Positions 2,287 through 24,694 of a stretch of 64,000 nucleotides of DNA are shown in pieces (the stretch's first letter is position 1; every line of letters begins with the position of its first letter). Made by a program: the position numbers and the translations under genes. Location of the stretch: assembly GCA_051880895.1 (NCBI GenBank), contig JBJEOV010000087.1, forward strand, positions 32,135 to 96,134, read 5' to 3'. The notes beneath the pieces are model-generated. The model was not told the origin of the DNA. It searched no databases and worked only from the letters and a program-made list of their open reading frames with translations. This DNA is from Ruminococcus sp. Its GTDB lineage: Bacteria > Bacillota > Clostridia > Oscillospirales > Acutalibacteraceae.

Positions 2287-3259
2287 AGTTCTGAAAATTA
2301 ATCTGCTGTTCTGTGATTAACGGATAGCGTATCAGCTCGGAGCGGTCAAGATTTTCTCTGTGCATATCAACAGCGAAAATCTGATGGTTTTCGTAGCTTG
2401 TGTAGTAGTAAATACCCTTTGTTGCGTTACAGCAGGAGGTGTAGATTGTAATTTCGTATTTTCCGTCTGCTACCTCGCAACAGCCTCTCTGCTGGTCAAC
2501 AGAGCCGAGAATGTGGAAAAACTGACTTACGCTTTCGTTTTCCGTATCGCCGGAAATTGAATGTGCTTTTGTGAATGCAACTCTTGCAAAGCGTGATGCA
2601 GACGATAAATCACCCGGAAGTCCTAACGCACCCATTCCACGACTGTATGCGTTGAGGGTAAGCCCGTCTGCAAAGGTGTTTTGCGGTTGCTTTTCTGAGA
2701 GCGACATATAATTGTTGAGTAAAAACATCTGTGTTTCAAACGGCGGATTATTCGTCAGTACGCCGAGGGGATTATCGTAAATGTGAAGTCCGTCGGCAAC
2801 TGACTCGACGGTTATCGCACTGTTTTCGTCAGCAATTATCCAGTGCAGCTGTGCGGCAGGCAGTTTTTCGTTGAACGGTGCGCCTGTAAGATTAATTTCG
2901 GAAAGCATTTGTTTTGCCTCTGAAACATCAGAACAGCGGCTCAGAATATAGGAGATGAATTCGTACTGAGCTACATTCTTTTTGCTGCTGTCTTCTTCAG
3001 AGTAAACGGCATTTCCTACGAAATTCAGTCCAGCCATTCCAAGTCCTTTTTCGTTTATTGCGTCATAGTAAAGCGGATAATTTTCGGCAATGTGCGCCAT
3101 TCCGATTATGGCATAGTGAGAATTGCAGGCGCCCATATAGCGAAAATTGAATACATAGTTCCTCGGTGTGACGGTTATTTCATCTCCGTACGAAAATTCG
3201 TAATCAAGCGTTCGCCCAAAATAAAAATCTTTGGTTTTGTAGGTTGCGGCAGTACACAT
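2285..3259 (-). CDS. bsh: Choloylglycine hydrolase (bile salt hydrolase, Ntn-hydrolase)
   Basis: N-terminal catalytic Cys (MCTAATYKTKDFYFGRTLDYE), DAINEKGL, LTNNPPF, LPGDLSSASRF motifs; AAAGGAGG RBS. Confidence 0.9.
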   Translation of the reverse strand: MCTAATYKTKDFYFGRTLDYEFSYGDEITVTPRNYVFNFRYMGACNSHYAIIGMAHIAENYPLYYDAINEKGLGMAGLNFVGNAVYSEEDSSKKNVAQYEFISYILSRCSDVSEAKQMLSEINLTGAPFNEKLPAAQLHWIIADENSAITVESVADGLHIYDNPLGVLTNNPPFETQMFLLNNYMSLSEKQPQNTFADGLTLNAYSRGMGALGLPGDLSSASRFARVAFTKAHSISGDTENESVSQFFHILGSVDQQRGCCEVADGKYEITIYTSCCNATKGIYYYTSYENHQIFAVDMHRENLDRSELIRYPLITEQQINFQN

Positions 3260-3379
3260 ATAAAAACCTCCTTTGGTTATTGTTGCTATAAAGTATAAAA
3301 TTATGTATAAATGACATCAGACTCCTTACCGAGCGGAAAGGAGTCTTTTTGTTACTGCGTTTTTTTGGCAGCTATAAGG

Positions 3380-3810
3380 TTATTTCCATTTTAATTCTCC
3401 GTCACCGCCCATAAGCTTTGTCATTTCCTCAATTTTATCAAGAGGGAACGGGGGAGATGAAACGGGCTTCATTGCAATAGACATAAGCTTCATCGGGTTA
3501 TCGTCAGCGGCAATTCTGTTGGAGCTTAGCGTACCGCAGATTCTACAGCGATGAATAATTGCCCATTCGCCGTTTTTGCGTACCCATACCGCAACGGGTT
3601 CCATTACGCCTCCGCAGTCTGCCTCACGGTCGCCAGGTTCAATATCAAGATGCTGACTTGAAAGGCAGTAGGGGCAGTGGTTGCGGTGGTCGCTTCCTGC
3701 ACCGTCAGGCACAACAAGCTTTCCACATACCTTGCAGGTGAAGCTCTCGTTACAAGCGTGTGATATATAATAACCTTTTTTGTATGATTTTTTTTGTTTT
3801 CTCTGTTCAT
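3380..3810 (-). CDS. RNHCP-domain zinc-binding protein; the well-spaced start (3810) is out of frame with the domain because of an A8 run
   Basis: HRNHCPYCL and CxxC motifs. GGAGGA is 9 nt from the ATG at 3810 (MNRENKK) but only 2 nt from the in-frame ATG at 3817. A ninth A would join the frames. Confidence 0.75.
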
Positions 3811-3849
3811 AGAGCATAATCCTCCAAAAAGTAAAATCAAAAACCTTTT

Positions 3850-3936
3850 GGGAGGTTTCTTGGCAAAGCAGCAAACCTCCCGGTTATGCTACAATCACGC
3901 TTAATGTGCTAATCTTTGTCAAACAGCAATCTCCTT
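3850..3936 (-). promoter_or_regulatory. Candidate attenuator leader: AAGGAG RBS, 12-codon uORF (3922-3884, TTG start, MTKISTLSVIVA), then GGGAGGTTT/AAACCTCCC hairpin
   Basis: RBS is 8 nt from the TTG; a 9-bp perfect stem at 3881-3850 follows the uORF stop, with T-rich sequence shortly after. Confidence 0.55.
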
Positions 3937-3987
3937 AATTAAAAATTTATGATAAAGCCAAAGGCTGAATCGACATTTTGCACTTAA

Positions 3988-4016
3988 ATTATATCAGCAT
4001 ATGTGACGATTTTCAA
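3988..4016 (-). promoter_or_regulatory. Sigma-A promoter of the RNHCP leader
   Basis: TTGAAA-17-TATAAT with extended TG. Confidence 0.7.
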
Positions 4017-4095
4017 TATATATTTAAAAATTTTGTGTAAATTATACAACCTGACGCTCCCTTAAGCAAACTGAAACAGATACCGTAAAACACAA

Positions 4096-5130
4096 CTATA
4101 TGTGCAAGAACTTTAACCTCGGAAATTTATGCTTTAGCTTGTTCCACAGCAAAATTATGAGGGAACAGACTATTATGTCAACGATTGTCATTATCCACCA
4201 GCTGTAGCTTATGCTTTTCAGACCGGGGATACTGCTCCAGATGAGGTTGGAATAACTGTTTACAGCATAATTAAACGCCATAATTATTATTGTATTTTTA
4301 CCTAAAAATGACAAAAAAGCAAAATTATAGGCATATTTATAGCAAACATACAATACTGCGAATGAAATTGTGACTGAACCGATAAATGTAAGAAAGGCAT
4401 TGTTAAGGGTATTGTTGCACAGATCAACTCTCGGATTGGTGATTATACAGAAAGCGCCTAAAGCTATCATAGCAACAACGAAAGAGATTCCGTGAGTGAT
4501 ATTTTTCAGTGTTCCTGCTTCCTTGAATTTCAGACCTATAAACATAAAAGCCATACCGAGCAGGGCAATATTTATATGCCAGGGGAGCTGAATATGTACG
4601 GTTAAATACAAAATATAGTCTGCTGATACCGCTGAAATGCACAATATTACCTGAACCAATGTGCGTTTTATTTTTTGAAGAAAATAAAAGCAAAGACAGC
4701 TTAAAAACATACAAGGCAAAAACCATAACGGAGTACAGTTAGGCATTTTGTCAATCGCACCCCAGGAATAAAATATCCATTGCAAATGATTAATAGCTGA
4801 GTCAATTAATTTTTGACCGCTCATTCCCCTGAACTGCTCTAAAGGTATGTTTATCAGCAGATTTAAAAATGCCAGTATAAAATACGGCAGCAGGTAAGCC
4901 CTCAGCTTTGCTGTAAGCAATTTTTTAAATCCAAGCTCCGACCATTTATTTTTGTTGTAAAGAAATCCTGACAGTATAAAGAAAAACGGCATATGAAAGC
5001 CGAATATTGCTTTTACAAGCGGCTCAGGCGCATTTGCGTGGCCTATCAGCATCAGAATTATGGCAAATCCTCTCGCTGCATCAATGTAGGCTAATCGTTC
5101 GTTATTTTTGTCAATCATTTTTATCCCCAT
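4096..5130 (-). CDS. Acyltransferase family 3 (OafA-like) membrane protein
   Basis: YIDAARGFAIILMLIGH, FHMPFFFILSGF, PLWFLPCMF motifs; multi-TM. Confidence 0.85.
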   Translation of the reverse strand: MGIKMIDKNNERLAYIDAARGFAIILMLIGHANAPEPLVKAIFGFHMPFFFILSGFLYNKNKWSELGFKKLLTAKLRAYLLPYFILAFLNLLINIPLEQFRGMSGQKLIDSAINHLQWIFYSWGAIDKMPNCTPLWFLPCMFLSCLCFYFLQKIKRTLVQVILCISAVSADYILYLTVHIQLPWHINIALLGMAFMFIGLKFKEAGTLKNITHGISFVVAMIALGAFCIITNPRVDLCNNTLNNAFLTFIGSVTISFAVLYVCYKYAYNFAFLSFLGKNTIIIMAFNYAVNSYSNLIWSSIPGLKSISYSWWIMTIVDIIVCSLIILLWNKLKHKFPRLKFLHI

Positions 5131-5164
5131 ATTATCATCAGAATAAAGGTAATTCCGAACAAAT

Positions 5165-5548
5165 TTATGAATTCAGAAAATCAATTATAAGTTCTTTTTC
5201 AGCCTGCGGCAGAATATGCATATGACCGCTGCCCTTAAGCTCACGGACTTCGCAATTCTGAATAATCTGCTTTGCTCTCGGAAGAACTTTTCTTGCAGGA
5301 AAAAGCAAATCCTTTTCGGATGCAATAACAAGCGCAGGAGCTTTGAACTGCTGCATCAGCTTTCTGCTGACATTTGTGGGCATTCCCACTTTTGTCTTAA
5401 CATTGTCAAAGCTGTCTTTTATAGTTTCCATTGTATCGCTGGAAGTATCAACATAAATATCGCTATACTCCGAATCAAGCTTTTTTATTTGTTTATCATA
5501 CAGTTGTAAAGACTTTTCTTTACCCATTTCAGATTTATATATTCCCAT
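5165..5548 (-). pseudogene. Alpha/beta-hydrolase with a large in-frame internal deletion
   Basis: N-terminus (IYKSEMGKE..YDKQ..DIYVDTS) is joined directly to the C-terminal part (PALVIASEKDLLFP..GSGHM). No nucleophile elbow; only 127 aa. Confidence 0.6.
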
Positions 5549-5577
5549 ACTATTCTCCTTGAATATTATTTTCAGAT

Positions 5578-6756
5578 TTATTTGCGGTTAATCTGACAGA
5601 CGGTTTCGATGTGCGCAGTATGTGGGAACATATCTACGGGTTGGATTTTGGTGATTTTGTAGGTGCTGTTTTGTTCTATATACGCTAAATCTCTTGCGAG
5701 GGTTTCGGGGTTGCAGGAGATATAGACAACTGTTTTCGGATTCATTTTTATCAGGGAGGAGAGGAATTTTTCGTCACTGCCGGCTCTCGGCGGATCCATA
5801 AATACTACATCGGGCTTTTCTTTTTCCTCAGCGACCGTCTGCATAAATTCACCTGCGTCGCCCTGATAGAACCTGATGTTTTTTAAGCTGTTCGCCCTTG
5901 CGTTCTGCACAGCGTCCTTTACGGCGTCCTTGTTCAGCTCGACTCCGATAACCGAGCCTGCGCCGTTTTTGGCGGATACTATTCCGATTGTGCCGATTCC
6001 GCAGTAGGCGTCAAGTACGGTTTCGCTGCCCTTGAGATTTGCAAATTCAACAGCCTTGTTATAAAGCACCTCGGTCTGAATGGGGTTTATCTGATAAAAG
6101 CTCTTTGGCGAAATTCTGAACCTACAGCCGCACAGTATGTCCTCAATATATCCCTTGCCGTACAGCACCTTCTGCACATCGCCGAGCACAAGGTTAGTTC
6201 TGTAGGGGTTTATATTCTGCACAACCGTTTTAATCTCCGGAAACTGCTTTGTGATTGCCTTTACAAAATTATTTTTTGACGGAAAAACAGGCGTACCGGT
6301 AACAAGAACGAGCATAACCTCATTTGTCGCAAAGCCTCTTTTTACAAGAATATGCCTTAAAAATCCCTTCTGCCTGTCCTCGTCATAGGTTGTGAGCTTA
6401 AAAGATTTCAGCATTTTGCGTACAGCTACGATTATTTTGTCCGCCGTTACATCCTCAGTCATACACTCGTCAATGCCGACGATATGATGTGTGCCGGACT
6501 GATACACACCTGAGATTATTCTGCCCTTGCTGTCTGTTCTGAAAGCCGCCTGCACCTTGTTGCGATAGTGATACGGATTATCCATTCCGATGATTTTTTC
6601 AACTCTGCAAAAGCCTGACAGCAGTTTTTCAACCTTTTTCTGCTTGAATTTAAGCTGCTCGGGGTAGGTGAGGTTTTGCAGCTGACAGCCGCCGCATTTT
6701 TTATATACAGGGCAGCTGCCCCTTTTTATGTTTTCTTTTGTATTACTCATAGTCAT
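5578..6756 (-). CDS. rlmD: 23S rRNA (uracil-5) methyltransferase, RlmD/TrmA family
   Basis: CPVYKKCGGCQLQ, SFYQIN, DAYCGIG, MDPPRAG, YISCNPETLARD, DMFPHT. Confidence 0.9.
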   Translation of the reverse strand: MTMSNTKENIKRGSCPVYKKCGGCQLQNLTYPEQLKFKQKKVEKLLSGFCRVEKIIGMDNPYHYRNKVQAAFRTDSKGRIISGVYQSGTHHIVGIDECMTEDVTADKIIVAVRKMLKSFKLTTYDEDRQKGFLRHILVKRGFATNEVMLVLVTGTPVFPSKNNFVKAITKQFPEIKTVVQNINPYRTNLVLGDVQKVLYGKGYIEDILCGCRFRISPKSFYQINPIQTEVLYNKAVEFANLKGSETVLDAYCGIGTIGIVSAKNGAGSVIGVELNKDAVKDAVQNARANSLKNIRFYQGDAGEFMQTVAEEKEKPDVVFMDPPRAGSDEKFLSSLIKMNPKTVVYISCNPETLARDLAYIEQNSTYKITKIQPVDMFPHTAHIETVCQINRK

Positions 6757-6819
6757 TCTCCGTATTAAATCCGAAAAGAGCCAAGGCAGATGTAGCTTGG
6801 CTCTGTATTCTTGCGTGTA

Positions 6820-8118
6820 TTATTCTTCTTTTTCCTTTTCATCCGCTGATTTTTCTTCGCTTTCGTTTTCATCAACAAGTCTTTTTACAACAACCCTGAT
6901 GATTCTCTGGTTGGCAACCTCCATTATCGTAAAGCGGAATCCGCCTGCCTCAACGCTTTCACGCTTGTTCGGAATTGTGCCGGCATTTTCAAGTATGTAT
7001 CCGCCTACGGTTATGCTGTCACTGTCAATGTAGTCCTCGTCAAGGTCGAAGAGTGCAAGCATATCGTCAAGCTCAAGGTCGCCGTTGACAAGAAATTCAT
7101 TCTTGCCGATTTTGTAATAGTTATGCTCAATCTCCTCGTCCTCGTCCCAGATGTCGCCCACGATTTCCTCGAGCAGATCCTCCATTGTGAGAATACCGAG
7201 AGTGCCGCCGTATTCGTCTGTAACGATTGCAAGGTGAACCTTGGTTCTCTTGAAGGTGTTGAGAATTTTGGAAAGAGGCTGTGTTCTGAATACAAAGTAA
7301 GGCGACTGCATAATTTCACGAACATCGGGAGCAATGCCGTCAGCGAGCTTTTCCAGATAATCTCTGGTGTGCAGTACGCCCACAATATTGTCAACCGTGT
7401 CCTTATATACGGGGATTCTTGAATATCTGTTCTCAAGAATTATATTCTTGATTTTTTCTGGCGAATCGTCAACGCTGATAAATGTTACATCAACTCGTGG
7501 CGTGATGACCTCTTCGGCGGTCTTTTCGTCAAAGTCAAGCGCAAGGCGCACCATTTCGCTTTCGCTTTCCTCCAGCACACCCTCTTCTTCAATGCTTTCA
7601 ACAATGTATTTAAGCTCGTTTTCGGTAACGCTCGGTGAATCCTCTGCACCGCCCGAGAGCTTAAGCACAAGACTTTTGAATTTTACAAGTACAAAAACAA
7701 AGGGAGTCAGTATGAACATCAGAAATTTAATCAGTCCTGATGTTTTTAATGTAAAGCTGTCGCAGTTTTCCTTTGCAAGACATTTCGGCAGTACCTCGCC
7801 AAAGGTGAGTACAAGCAGGGTGATTGCGCCCGTTGCAATGGCTGAGCCGTAGTCGCCGAAAAGATTTATGCACAAAACGGTTGCAAGTGACGAACAGCTC
7901 AGATTTACAACATTGTTGCAGATAAGAATTGTTGTCAGAGCCTTGTCAAAATTTTCTATAACAAAAAGTGCGGTAGAGGCTGTTTTGTCACCGTCATCAG
8001 ATTTCTTCTGGATTCTGATTTTATTGACAAAGGAAAGTGCAGTTTCGGTTGCTGAAAAAAACGAGGATAAGGCAATAAGTATTATAATTACTATTGCCAT
8101 CACTATGTTTGATGCCAA
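6820..8118 (-). CDS. HlyC/CorC (CNNM-CBS-CorC) family transporter
   Basis: FFSATETAL, GEVLPK, TPRVD, YSRIPVY, DEYGGTLGILTMEDLLEEIVGDI. Confidence 0.9.
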   Translation of the reverse strand: MASNIVMAIVIIILIALSSFFSATETALSFVNKIRIQKKSDDGDKTASTALFVIENFDKALTTILICNNVVNLSCSSLATVLCINLFGDYGSAIATGAITLLVLTFGEVLPKCLAKENCDSFTLKTSGLIKFLMFILTPFVFVLVKFKSLVLKLSGGAEDSPSVTENELKYIVESIEEEGVLEESESEMVRLALDFDEKTAEEVITPRVDVTFISVDDSPEKIKNIILENRYSRIPVYKDTVDNIVGVLHTRDYLEKLADGIAPDVREIMQSPYFVFRTQPLSKILNTFKRTKVHLAIVTDEYGGTLGILTMEDLLEEIVGDIWDEDEEIEHNYYKIGKNEFLVNGDLELDDMLALFDLDEDYIDSDSITVGGYILENAGTIPNKRESVEAGGFRFTIMEVANQRIIRVVVKRLVDENESEEKSADEKEKEE

Positions 8119-22931: not shown

Positions 22932-23091
22932 AGAAAAAATCATCAAAAAGCAACATTTTCAAAGTCTTGATATAATGAGATGTGACAATTTTTAACATAT
23001 TATAAAATAAAGCAATTACAGCAACAAATCAGAATATTTCCGCAAAAGCAGTACACTTGTGTTGTAAAAAAACACAAGGAGGTGCCAAAGT

Positions 23092-23136
23092 ATGTGGGAA
23101 AATTTCTGGGAATGGTGGCATAATTTTTTCGGATGA
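23092..23136 (+). CDS. 14-aa aromatic micropeptide MWENFWEWWHNFFG (not in ORF track)
   Basis: AAGGAGGT RBS 8 nt before ATG; extended -10 TGATATAAT at 22968-22976; highly non-random composition. Confidence 0.6.
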   Translation: MWENFWEWWHNFFG

Positions 23137-23150
23137 TGCTCAAATCAATA

Positions 23151-23179
23151 GTGACTTTGTTCACCCGATATGATATAAT
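23151..23179 (+). promoter_or_regulatory. Promoter of the GHKL sensor gene
   Basis: GTGACT-17-TATAAT with extended TG. Confidence 0.55.
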
Positions 23180-23212
23180 GTTTAATATAAAATAATTCCG
23201 GAGTTAAGCATT

Positions 23213-24694
23213 ATGTCAACCGATATTTCAACCTTTATACACGAAACAGCCCTGACTTTCGTATCAAAATTGCCTGTTATTTATTCGGCGGCATATATTT
23301 TTATGAAGGTCACAAACCAAAAATGCAGCAAAGCAAAGTTGATTTTGTCTTTGACTGCATTTTTCGGCGTTGCTCTTGTTTCTTCCTTGCTGAAATTTTT
23401 CAGCGTCGGTTTAGCATTAATGGTATCCTATATCCTGTTTATACTTACAATAACCTTATTAACAAAAAAGCCTATTAAAATCTCTGCTCCGATGTCTGTA
23501 ATAATGTTGGGGATATCCTATTGCATAAGGTTTATATGTATTTTTTTATGCAGTATTATAGGATATTTTTTTGCTCTTAATCCTAAAGATATTTTCCCTG
23601 ATATAATTGTACTTATAATTAATATGACAGCTACCTTTCTTATTATGAAGATAAAGCGGTTAAAAAACGGCTTGAGTTTTTTTGATGATACAAACAATTT
23701 AGGTATCGGACTGCTTTTATCAGGCTTTATAGTTATTGTTGTAATGATTGTATCAGGTGAAAAGGAGATATATATTTCATTTTATCCAATTCTTGCTATC
23801 GGTATGGTAATCTGCTCAATAGGAGCCGTACTATGGATAAAAAACAGCATTAAAAGGCATTATAAAAGCCGACTTTTGCAAAAGGCAGACGAGCATTATA
23901 ATTCTATAATAGCAGAAAAGGACAATATCATTGACGAGCTTACAAAGTCAAACGCCTATCTGTCAAAAATAGTTCATCGTGACAATCACCTTATGACTTC
24001 CCTGCAATATTCCTTAAATGAGCTTTCAGACTGCAATAACAGTGAAGGACAAAAACAAATAATCAAGGAGATATTAACACTTGCAAAGGAAAGAAACGAG
24101 CTTGTACTGCACGAGCAAGCCGAAAATAAAATACTTGCCAAAACAGGCAATTCTGTTATTGACGGCGCTCTTATGAATATGTATATAAAAGCCACTGCTC
24201 ACAAAATAAGCTTTGACCTGATTGCAAACGCCGATGTCAGCTATATTATCAATCATTTTATCTCGCAGACAGAGCTTGAAACCCTGCTTTGCGACCACAT
24301 CAAGGACGCAATCATTGCAGTGGATTCCTGCGGCAGGCAGAACGGCAGTATTCTTGCCTCAATATCAAATTCAGACGGAATATACGAAATCTCCGTACAG
24401 GATAACGGAATTGAGTTTGAGCCTGACACCCTGCAAAGGCTTGGTATTGAAAGAGTTACTACTCACAAGGATAGCGGCGGAAACGGCATAGGCTTTATGA
24501 CAAGCTTTGACACACTCAGAAAGGCAGACGCAAGCCTTATTATAACCGAATACGGAGCAGACAAGCCGTTCACAAAGTCTGTTACATTCAGATTTGACGG
24601 TCAGGGTAAATTTATTATTAAATCCTACAGAAGTAATATTCTGAAAGAAACCGTTAAACGCTCCGATGTAAAGATTTACGGTGTTCATTTATGA
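23213..24694 (+). CDS. AgrC-like multi-TM sensor with GHKL ATPase domain (orphan)
   Basis: About 6-7 TM helices; HRDNH putative H-box; ISVQDNG and GGNGIGF G-boxes; no adjacent response regulator or AgrB. Confidence 0.75.
   Translation: MSTDISTFIHETALTFVSKLPVIYSAAYIFMKVTNQKCSKAKLILSLTAFFGVALVSSLLKFFSVGLALMVSYILFILTITLLTKKPIKISAPMSVIMLGISYCIRFICIFLCSIIGYFFALNPKDIFPDIIVLIINMTATFLIMKIKRLKNGLSFFDDTNNLGIGLLLSGFIVIVVMIVSGEKEIYISFYPILAIGMVICSIGAVLWIKNSIKRHYKSRLLQKADEHYNSIIAEKDNIIDELTKSNAYLSKIVHRDNHLMTSLQYSLNELSDCNNSEGQKQIIKEILTLAKERNELVLHEQAENKILAKTGNSVIDGALMNMYIKATAHKISFDLIANADVSYIINHFISQTELETLLCDHIKDAIIAVDSCGRQNGSILASISNSDGIYEISVQDNGIEFEPDTLQRLGIERVTTHKDSGGNGIGFMTSFDTLRKADASLIITEYGADKPFTKSVTFRFDGQGKFIIKSYRSNILKETVKRSDVKIYGVHL

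Follow-up and report, generated by a model that had tools for sequence, protein, structure and literature searches.

A tryptophan-rich micropeptide gene conserved upstream of a divergent seven-transmembrane histidine kinase: a candidate signaling cassette of Clostridia

The window analyzed here is a stretch of 64,000 nucleotides (nt) from Ruminococcus sp. (contig JBJEOV010000087.1, positions 32,135 to 96,134 of the forward strand), part of an assembly of 1.85 Mb that is 97.9% complete (GCA_051880895.1, here genome G000). On its forward strand, a 14-codon frame (23092..23136) encoding the Trp-rich peptide MWENFWEWWHNFFG (14 amino acids plus a TGA stop, with four Trp and three Phe residues) precedes the gene of a seven-transmembrane (7-TM) histidine kinase of 493 amino acids (23213..24694). 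Judged by its conservation, this frame is a real, unannotated gene, and it is probably translated into a micropeptide. The best explanation for its presence, to which a probability of about 0.7 is assigned, is that a leaderless, unprocessed and amphipathic peptide acts on the membrane domain of the kinase as its dedicated partner. The original prediction, which drew attention to this pair of genes, had listed the open reading frame (ORF), its ribosome-binding site at a spacing of 8 nt, a stem, an extended -10 element, the HRDNH and DHIKDAIIA motifs of the kinase and a promoter for the kinase gene, and all of them are found at the positions it gave.

The evidence for the micropeptide gene comes mainly from the DNA upstream of homologous kinases. 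These were collected from 11 of 61 related genomes and from 79 loci of a species-representative genome collection, and include Ruminococcus intestinalis NSJ-71, Eubacterium sp. OM08-24, and many metagenome-assembled genomes (MAGs) of rumen, gut, and termite Clostridia. The original prediction had suggested searching upstream of such homologues for small Trp-rich ORFs with codon-level conservation, a search with a positive outcome: among the 71 kinase loci with at least 150 nt of upstream DNA, 63 carry an ORF of 12-18 codons on the sense strand, rich in Trp and preceded by a Shine-Dalgarno (SD) sequence. The carriers belong to Ruminococcus, Oscillospiraceae, Defluviitaleaceae and other Clostridia MAGs, and the spacing between ORF and kinase ranges from 25 to 330 nt, mostly 50-150 nt. 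Under a fixed automated criterion, the ORF is recovered in 57/69 sense upstream regions, in 0/69 antisense regions, and in 2/1628 other 420-nt regions of the same loci. The encoded peptides include MWDDIYEFLKQLLGK in R. intestinalis NSJ-71, MWETLYELLKRLWG in Eubacterium sp. OM08-24, and MWDYLYEWLKRFWG, MSWWEYLKWLLGLGY, MSFWEWIRYWLG, MWEWIMKALGYWGGWK, and MAFWDWLIRLMVGKT in other kinase loci, with two tandem copies of the peptide gene in locus L065 and again in L081. Natural fusions of peptide and kinase were looked for, and none was found.

When the peptides are aligned on the first Trp that precedes E, D, N, S, G, Q, K or A, this anchor is present in 60/60 of them. The position after it is E or D in 49/60, written with the codons GAA, GAG, GAT, and GAC, and 43/60 have W or Y at +2. 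L, I, F or V occupy positions +3 and +7 through more than 10 different codons, and the Ser at -2, ahead of the motif, makes use of both AGY and TCN codons. An amino-acid motif kept via so many synonymous codons reflects selection on the protein sequence. The motif occupies residues 2-6, at the extreme N-terminus, and contains the acidic residue. Among close relatives, the ORF of L095, whose kinase is 97% identical to that of the window, differs by two synonymous changes only, and L092, with a kinase 85% identical, encodes MWENFWEWWHNLFR.

The 61 distinct peptides consist of Trp to 20%, have a net charge that is mostly 0 or -1, and are practically free of Cys, which makes up 0.1% of the residues across the family and does not occur in the window peptide. 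Their helical hydrophobic moment exceeds that of shuffled versions (z > 1) in 50/61 cases; for the window peptide, z is 2.9 and 0/500 shuffles reach its value. A loose filter applied to the whole window assembly (N-terminal Trp, SD, 11-20 amino acids) retains four ORFs, the only family-like one being that of the window. The single family-like ORF in the genome, the 57/69 against 2/1628 outcome of the screen, and the hydrophobic moment argue together that this frame is not a product of chance.

The second element of the system is the kinase, a divergent class I (DHp-CA) histidine kinase from a family with an altered ATP-lid residue. It consists of a membrane domain (amino acids 1-210), a DHp domain with His255, and a CA domain (amino acids 314-493) with Asp365 at the N-box position. 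An AlphaFold2 (AF2) model built from an alignment of 78 sequences (pLDDT 89.6) has seven TM helices with tiny outer loops, in agreement with the six to seven originally predicted, and the positive-inside rule places the N-terminus outside. In the same model, TM7 runs into a long DHp helix (187-273) that carries His255, followed by a second DHp helix and the CA domain. The H-box of the window kinase reads VHRDNH (His255 codon 23975-23977) and its N-box motif DHIKDAIIA (Asp365 codon 24305-24307). Both had been described as unusual; they are traits of the entire family rather than peculiarities of the window gene, since His255 is shared by 78/78 members and, at position 365, 69/78 have Asp and 9/78 Asn. 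In the same alignment, the defining residues of the G1 box (D397-x-G399) and of the G2 box (G423-x-G425-x-G427) never vary. The kinase thus has the phospho-accepting His and the GHKL G1 and G2 boxes of class I enzymes, but not the N-box Asn, and its HATPase_c score (23.3 bits) lies below the Pfam cut-off of 26.4. Pfam gives no match to any HisKA family and, at E <= 0.1, none to HATPase_c_5, the core of the HPK10 kinases, and NCBIfam gives nothing meaningful. A profile search of the PDB returns KinB alone (E = 0.0013), and the best Foldseek matches of the model are HK853, WalK/YycG, KinB, and CpxA (E 1e-6 to 1e-4); no AgrC chain is found among the PDB sequence or fold matches. The kinase had been called AgrC-like in the original prediction, an assignment that has to be abandoned in view of the missing HATPase_c_5/HPK10 match and the fold matches to generic DHp-CA kinases.

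The most conserved part of the sensor domain is the cytoplasmic loop between TM5 and TM6 (amino acids 147-159, KIKRLKNGLSFFD, 23651..23689, forward strand). The mean frequency of the top residue reaches 0.61 in this loop (KIKRFKNGFxF), against 0.17-0.25 in the outward-facing loops, and R149, G153, and F156 are conserved in at least 91% of the sequences. The remaining conserved positions of the domain also lie at the cytoplasmic ends of the helices. The family comprises 876 clusters at E <= 1e-30 in a library clustered at 50% identity and has a patchy distribution, being found in 11/399 sampled Clostridia genomes and 6/217 genera; a search for phage carriage found no relative in viral contigs. 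A distant paralogue in L009 (G027 C45), with 24-27% identity, has neither the H-box His (LLKDNK) nor a peptide or Spo0A-like neighbor and, from its sequence, may be a pseudokinase. Two genes of the kinase family stand in tandem at 915-3928 of L020.

In most relatives, the peptide and the kinase are part of a larger cassette. Clustering of all ORFs in the collected loci returns three conserved families only, namely the kinase (84 loci), a Spo0A-like regulator (66 loci), and an XRE protein (46 loci); no transporter, protease or modification enzyme is conserved around the peptide in these 84 loci. The ancestral order is a divergent XRE repressor, a response regulator paralogous to Spo0A, the peptide, and the kinase, as also found in L092 and R. 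intestinalis, and about 60 loci have the order regulator-peptide-kinase. In about 66 loci, the peptide is preceded by the gene of a response regulator of about 260 amino acids with REC and Spo0A_C domains. The divergent XRE protein (108-126 amino acids) holds an HTH_3 domain, similar to the helix-turn-helix (HTH) of SinR and of phage repressors, and no TPR. In genome G010, the regulator and the XRE protein are present, and the kinase and the peptide are both absent. In G020, the XRE gene, the regulator, and the peptide MSWWDFWRWIFGGGN are found at the end of contig C6 (L100) and the kinase at the end of C69 (L003/L030), a split that is probably due to an assembly break containing an insertion.

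The regulator could be taken for Spo0A itself, an identification that was rejected. Relatives with the kinase carry a canonical Spo0A, which adjoins spoIVB, plus a second copy beside the kinase; the cassette regulator reaches about 80 bits on Spo0A_C and the canonical copy of the same genomes about 160, the regulator is 27% identical to a relative's canonical Spo0A, and it is not located by spoIVB. Some Clostridiales are reported to carry two spo0A paralogues, to which no function is assigned (10.1101/2022.02.25.481979), and the function of the second Spo0A homologue of C. thermocellum is unknown (PMC4890492). Searches of the literature for the peptide strings, for Spo0A paralogues, and for micropeptides paired with kinases found no description of the cassette.

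In the window genome the cassette has been broken up, and the course of this rearrangement can be traced by blastn against L092, where the ancestral order is kept. Positions 1-2642 of L092, up to the regulator stop, match contig C73 at 3051-5680; positions 2713-4463, from the peptide promoter to near the kinase end, match the window directly at 22936-24675 with 87.7% identity; and positions 4503-7474, covering the mnmA terminator, mnmA, nadA, and beyond, match the window in inverted orientation at 22931-19980. By this comparison, the block of promoter region, peptide gene, and kinase gene (22936..24675, forward strand), colinear with the ancestral cassette, has been inverted with respect to mnmA and separated from the regulator. 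The breakpoints coincide exactly with the two ends of the block, which now lies between mnmA and the JAB gene. The last six or so codons of the kinase are new, and since they have no counterpart in relatives the junction must fall inside the end of the kinase gene, whose stop overlaps the start of the JAB gene (ATGA, 24691-24694). The same arrangement is found in L095, where it is fixed too. The regulator pair was left on C73, with the XRE gene at 4375-4755 and, at 4901-5677, the paralogue, which is the sole Spo0A_C gene of the assembly. The kinase is therefore an orphan by position only: the original prediction was right in that no regulator lies alongside it, but the ancestral partners are still present on C73. 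The rearrangement can be read as a natural experiment in which the peptide was kept with the kinase, and G010 as the converse case.

The remaining genes within about 5 kb are LCP, sortase, NadA, and MnmA on the upstream side, and JAB, a TrxB-like (thioredoxin-reductase-like) protein, GlmS, and a CapD-like protein downstream. These are housekeeping genes, and no AgrB or LytTR gene is among them, as the original prediction had noted. Searches by tblastn with a relative's proteins detected neither canonical spo0A nor spoIVB in the window assembly, the only hit being the paralogue on C73. SpoIVA is present (C29 8084-8791, 393 bits), and the absence of the other two is probably due to a gap in the assembly at the spoIVB-spo0A locus, real loss being the alternative.

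The peptide gene has expression signals of its own. Its SD sequence, AAGGAGGT (23076..23083), ends 8 nt before the ATG, and a candidate promoter is marked by the extended -10 element TGATATAAT (22968..22976), kept as TGATATAAC in L092; all of these elements are on the forward strand. The kinase has a near-consensus sigma-A promoter of its own (23151..23179), in which GTGACT (23151-23156) and TATAAT (23174-23179), the latter after TG-n, are separated by 17 nt, and loci L013-L016 and L096 keep the pattern TAGTGACA-N-TATGATATAAT. For the peptide promoter, the alternative sigma factors H, E, and K were considered, and dropped when a comparison by eye gave no convincing match. Between the peptide and kinase promoters lies the leader segment AAGCAATTACAGCAACAAATCAGAATATTTCCGCAAAA (23010..23047, forward strand), near-invariant in the window clade and almost identical in L092, L095, L013, L014, and L015, whose kinases are just 62-85% identical; it may act as a second promoter, bind a regulator, or form an RNA element. 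Downstream of the peptide, most loci have a strong intrinsic terminator, whose median distance from the stop is 13 nt. In the window clade, such a terminator is missing between peptide ORF and kinase, so that transcription could read through into the kinase.

The SD of the window is embedded in a hairpin (23051..23085, forward strand) formed by an inner stem, CTTGTGTT (23056-23063) with AACACAAG (23071-23078), and a short outer stem, GTAC/GTGC; the first 3 nt of the SD also belong to the 3' arm of the 8-bp inner stem. The hairpin has a predicted dG of -13.4 (z = -4.2 against shuffles), and an equivalent one with z < -2 is predicted in 44/63 loci, ending 0-3 nt from the SD core in 39/46 distinct leaders. 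A more elaborate leader lies about 90 nt upstream of the peptide ORF in a large non-Ruminococcus clade (L044, L048-L053, L060-L069, L077, L083, L085), where an anti-SD helix encloses two hairpins. The upstream one, of 11 bp, is 96% paired and has compensatory changes in 7/11 pairs. In the outer helix, the anti-SD (CACTTCC or GTTCACTAC) faces the SD (GGAGGTG or GGGTGGTGAAC), and the two are 82% paired in a fixed register, against 35-49% in slid controls. This fixed-register count is positive in one clade, and a crude minimum free energy (MFE) test of the long-range anti-SD pairing did not rise above shuffled controls. No match to Rfam rises above noise in the window, nor does any reach the gathering score in six related loci; the element of this clade looks like an undescribed translational control element of the peptide mRNA. 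In L019 (~1990-2190) and L037 (~2053-2250), a MITE-like (miniature inverted-repeat transposable element) insertion of about 160 nt, with the terminal inverted repeats ATACTAATACCTGATAAAAA, lies after the regulator stop and ahead of the peptide, in the terminator loop of the regulator gene; it is absent from the near-identical L022.

A mechanism can be proposed in which the peptide is synthesized leaderless and with no dedicated genes for processing or export, none of which is linked to it in more than 60 loci. Its sequence statistics show a short amphipathic Trp-rich helix of near-neutral charge, which would partition into the membrane and bind the membrane domain of the kinase. Binding would alter autophosphorylation of His255 and the phosphotransfer to the cassette regulator, to which the kinase is connected by gene linkage. 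The regulator, finally, might feed back on its own promoter and that of the peptide via a repeat motif common to both. The original prediction had proposed a peptide-kinase module lacking the known processing genes; the association and the lack of linked processing genes have both held up, and the role of the peptide as ligand or modulator is one that we infer.

Support for a dedicated partner comes from the separate expression unit of the peptide, with its strong SD and structured leader and, in most loci, a terminator. The joint variation of the two proteins also bears on this. Peptide dissimilarity correlates with the distance between kinase TM domains when the cytoplasmic domain is controlled for (partial Mantel r = 0.22, permutation p = 5e-4, 53 loci), and the reverse partial correlation, with the cytoplasmic domain, is 0.09 in the same loci. 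In the closest relative, which has a near-identical peptide, the TM and cytoplasmic parts of the kinase are 90% and 81% identical, and in R. intestinalis, where the peptide is much changed, these values are 48% and 74%. Peptide divergence thus seems to follow that of the TM domain, in a way that is suggestive only. As for the feedback step, the motif ACAAAAA[C/G]CAAC is common to the regulator and peptide promoters in the Ruminococcus clade, and 27 of its 31 matches in 287 kb fall in the regulator promoter or 90-150 nt upstream of peptide ORFs. The regulator promoter holds tandem copies at 10-bp spacing, such as the two copies of GTTNGTTTTTGT directly upstream of TAGTATAAT at 4852-4881 of L097 (C73), kept in 13 related loci, and the window has a copy, TCAAAAAGCAAC (22943..22954, forward strand), at the -35 position of the TGATATAAT promoter. 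The motif is weakly proposed as a candidate autoregulatory site, and the window copy as a candidate binding site of the regulator.

Several observations weigh against this interpretation. Mantel tests are liberal, and the TM domain evolves faster in any case. The repeat motif was found post hoc, and TTCGACA-like Spo0A boxes, present ahead of the peptide in some other loci only, are no general feature (1.6 against 1.0 per kb). In 8 of the 71 kinase loci no peptide can be recognized, and in two of them, L007 (G002 C1 ~540-542 kb) and L036, the kinase start follows directly on the regulator stop; the kinase can therefore exist without the peptide. L016 is a peptide-less natural variant, in which the kinase promoter is kept and the ORF lost. 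A peptide of 12-18 amino acids is too short to span the bilayer and, to our knowledge, no kinase ligand is made without processing.

Where the peptide would act is the point on which this interpretation borders on its nearest rival. Within it, a self-acting feedback modulator in the membrane of the producer is slightly preferred over a peptide that also serves as an intercellular pheromone, because no exporter is linked and the conserved residues of the sensor domain are located on the cytoplasmic face of the membrane. The rival, considered possible and clearly the less probable of the two, is a secreted quorum-sensing pheromone, exported and perhaps trimmed by unlinked machinery (an ABC transporter of the PptAB/EcsAB or Pmt type) and sensed by the kinase from the outside only; since the two overlap, the site of action is the sole difference. 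SHP/XIP peptides and phenol-soluble modulins (PSMs) are indeed exported by unlinked transporters, and a peptide gene placed right before that of a polytopic kinase, in a cassette that also holds a regulator, is what a pheromone system would have. The hypervariable outer face of the kinase, peptides that vary along with it as pherotypes do, the tandem gene copies, and the strong expression signals speak for a pheromone as well, and the first three would equally fit the intercellular version of the partner peptide. The N-terminal motif with its acidic residue is, on the other hand, unlike export-type N-termini, none of the more than 60 loci has an exporter, a protease or a leader sequence, and the conserved sensor residues are cytoplasmic. 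A tentative variant has the leaderless and unprocessed Trp-rich helix of 12-18 residues as the cognate signal of an unrecognized 7-TM kinase family, with Asp in the N-box, that would phosphorylate Spo0A-paralogue regulators; the peptide would cross membranes unaided, making a dedicated exporter unnecessary, and the leader would gate its translation in most members.

The other explanations would separate the peptide from the membrane domain altogether. The conservation of an XRE protein of about 110-125 amino acids with a SinR-like HTH in 46 loci suggests a SinI-type anti-repressor that targets this protein or the Spo0A-like regulator, which is improbable given that the breakup of the cassette left the peptide beside the kinase and separated it from the XRE-regulator pair. 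G010, which keeps that pair without kinase or peptide, argues in the same direction, as do the divergence of the peptide along with the kinase TM domain and a hydrophobicity very high for a cytosolic partner. Just as little can be said for the peptide as an output of the system, a membrane-active effector comparable to delta-toxin, PSMs or a bacteriocin: a Trp-rich amphipathic helix from its own transcription unit, with strong predicted expression signals, would suit such a role, but a net charge of mostly 0 or -1 is unlike that of the cationic Trp-rich antimicrobial peptides, immunity or export genes are not linked, and the fixed position between regulator and kinase, together with the co-variation with the sensor domain, is at odds with it. 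Very improbable, finally, is a cis-regulatory role in which the peptide itself would be irrelevant and the ORF would control the kinase as an upstream ORF, a Trp-sensing attenuator or the coding part of a dual-function RNA. The terminator shortly after the stop in most loci, the abundance of Trp codons, and the structured, SD-sequestering leader are reminiscent of attenuation. The kinase, however, has its own promoter downstream of the terminator; an antiterminator is not conserved (any pairing in 15/37 loci, without a common pattern), and the window clade lacks the terminator. The widely varying distance between ORF and kinase, the absence of a matching Rfam family, and the conservation of the whole peptide as an amphipathic pattern beyond its Trp codons count against attenuation too.

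If the peptide is the partner of the kinase, the cassette would be a widespread and completely unannotated signaling system of abundant gut and rumen Clostridia, with a logic like that of peptide quorum sensing or MgrB-type feedback in which all the parts are different. It would involve the shortest known candidate for a ribosomally made ligand, without processing genes, and a new family of kinases in which an ATP-lid residue is altered, and it would provide a testable input for Spo0A paralogues of unknown function. It would also mean that genes of about 45 nt with a central function escape gene callers. Should the peptide be an unprocessed cognate signal, a further type of Gram-positive peptide signaling would stand beside agr, the double-glycine-leader peptides, and RRNPP. 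The idea is directly testable, since cultured carriers exist (R. intestinalis NSJ-71 and Eubacterium sp. OM08-24), and the peptide-less kinase loci L007, L036, and L016 would be useful as natural controls.

Several known systems share part of these features. Small encoded proteins that tune a histidine kinase, possibly as feedback from its regulon, include MgrB and SafA, which act on PhoQ, and Sda, which acts on KinA/KinB. MgrB and SafA are single-pass membrane proteins of 47-65 amino acids and Sda a soluble protein of 46, and none has a sequence relationship to the present peptide, which has 12-18 residues, cannot span the membrane, and is syntenic with the kinase across the whole family. Phenol-soluble modulins, delta-toxin, and leaderless bacteriocins likewise lack a leader, form amphipathic helices that are often Trp-rich, and are under two-component control. 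In contrast, PSM-type peptides are effectors or toxins of 20-50 amino acids, usually cationic, which leave the cell through dedicated exporters (Pmt) and are not kinase ligands. SHP and ComS/XIP, the latter with its WW motif, are also small, unmodified, aromatic and hydrophobic peptides, from unannotated short ORFs and with an unlinked exporter. They mature from the C-terminus of a precursor with a basic N-terminus and are re-imported to bind the cytoplasmic TPR regulators Rgg and ComR, whereas here, contrary to RRNPP/Rgg systems, the peptide gene adjoins that of a membrane kinase, an acidic motif is conserved at the N-terminus, and no TPR domain is present in the XRE protein. With Spo0A and the orphan sporulation kinases, the cassette shares a regulator of the REC plus Spo0A_C type and a kinase with KinB as its best PDB sequence match, although this regulator is a divergent paralogue that coexists with canonical Spo0A in relatives.

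The closest comparison is with the three-component pheromone systems ComC-ComD-ComE, PlnA-PlnB-PlnCD, and AgrD-AgrC-AgrA, which have the same layout: a small peptide gene directly upstream of a polytopic kinase with 6-7 TM helices and tiny loops, and a regulator in the cassette. Here, the peptide is 12-18 amino acids long as encoded, and has neither a double-glycine leader nor the Cys/thiolactone of the AgrD type; AgrB, a C39 ABC transporter, and ComQ are missing; the kinase does not belong to HPK10/HATPase_c_5, and the regulator is of the Spo0A_C rather than the LytTR type. Compared with ComCDE and Pln in particular, the adjacency of peptide and kinase with a regulator is found in about 60 loci; the ORFs have just 12-18 codons with the motif at residues 2-6, and none of the 84 loci has a transporter. 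Without the hallmark features of agr, double-glycine or RRNPP systems, the cassette is nonetheless like the three-component pheromone systems in its layout, and joint diversification of peptide and sensor domain is likewise found in them.

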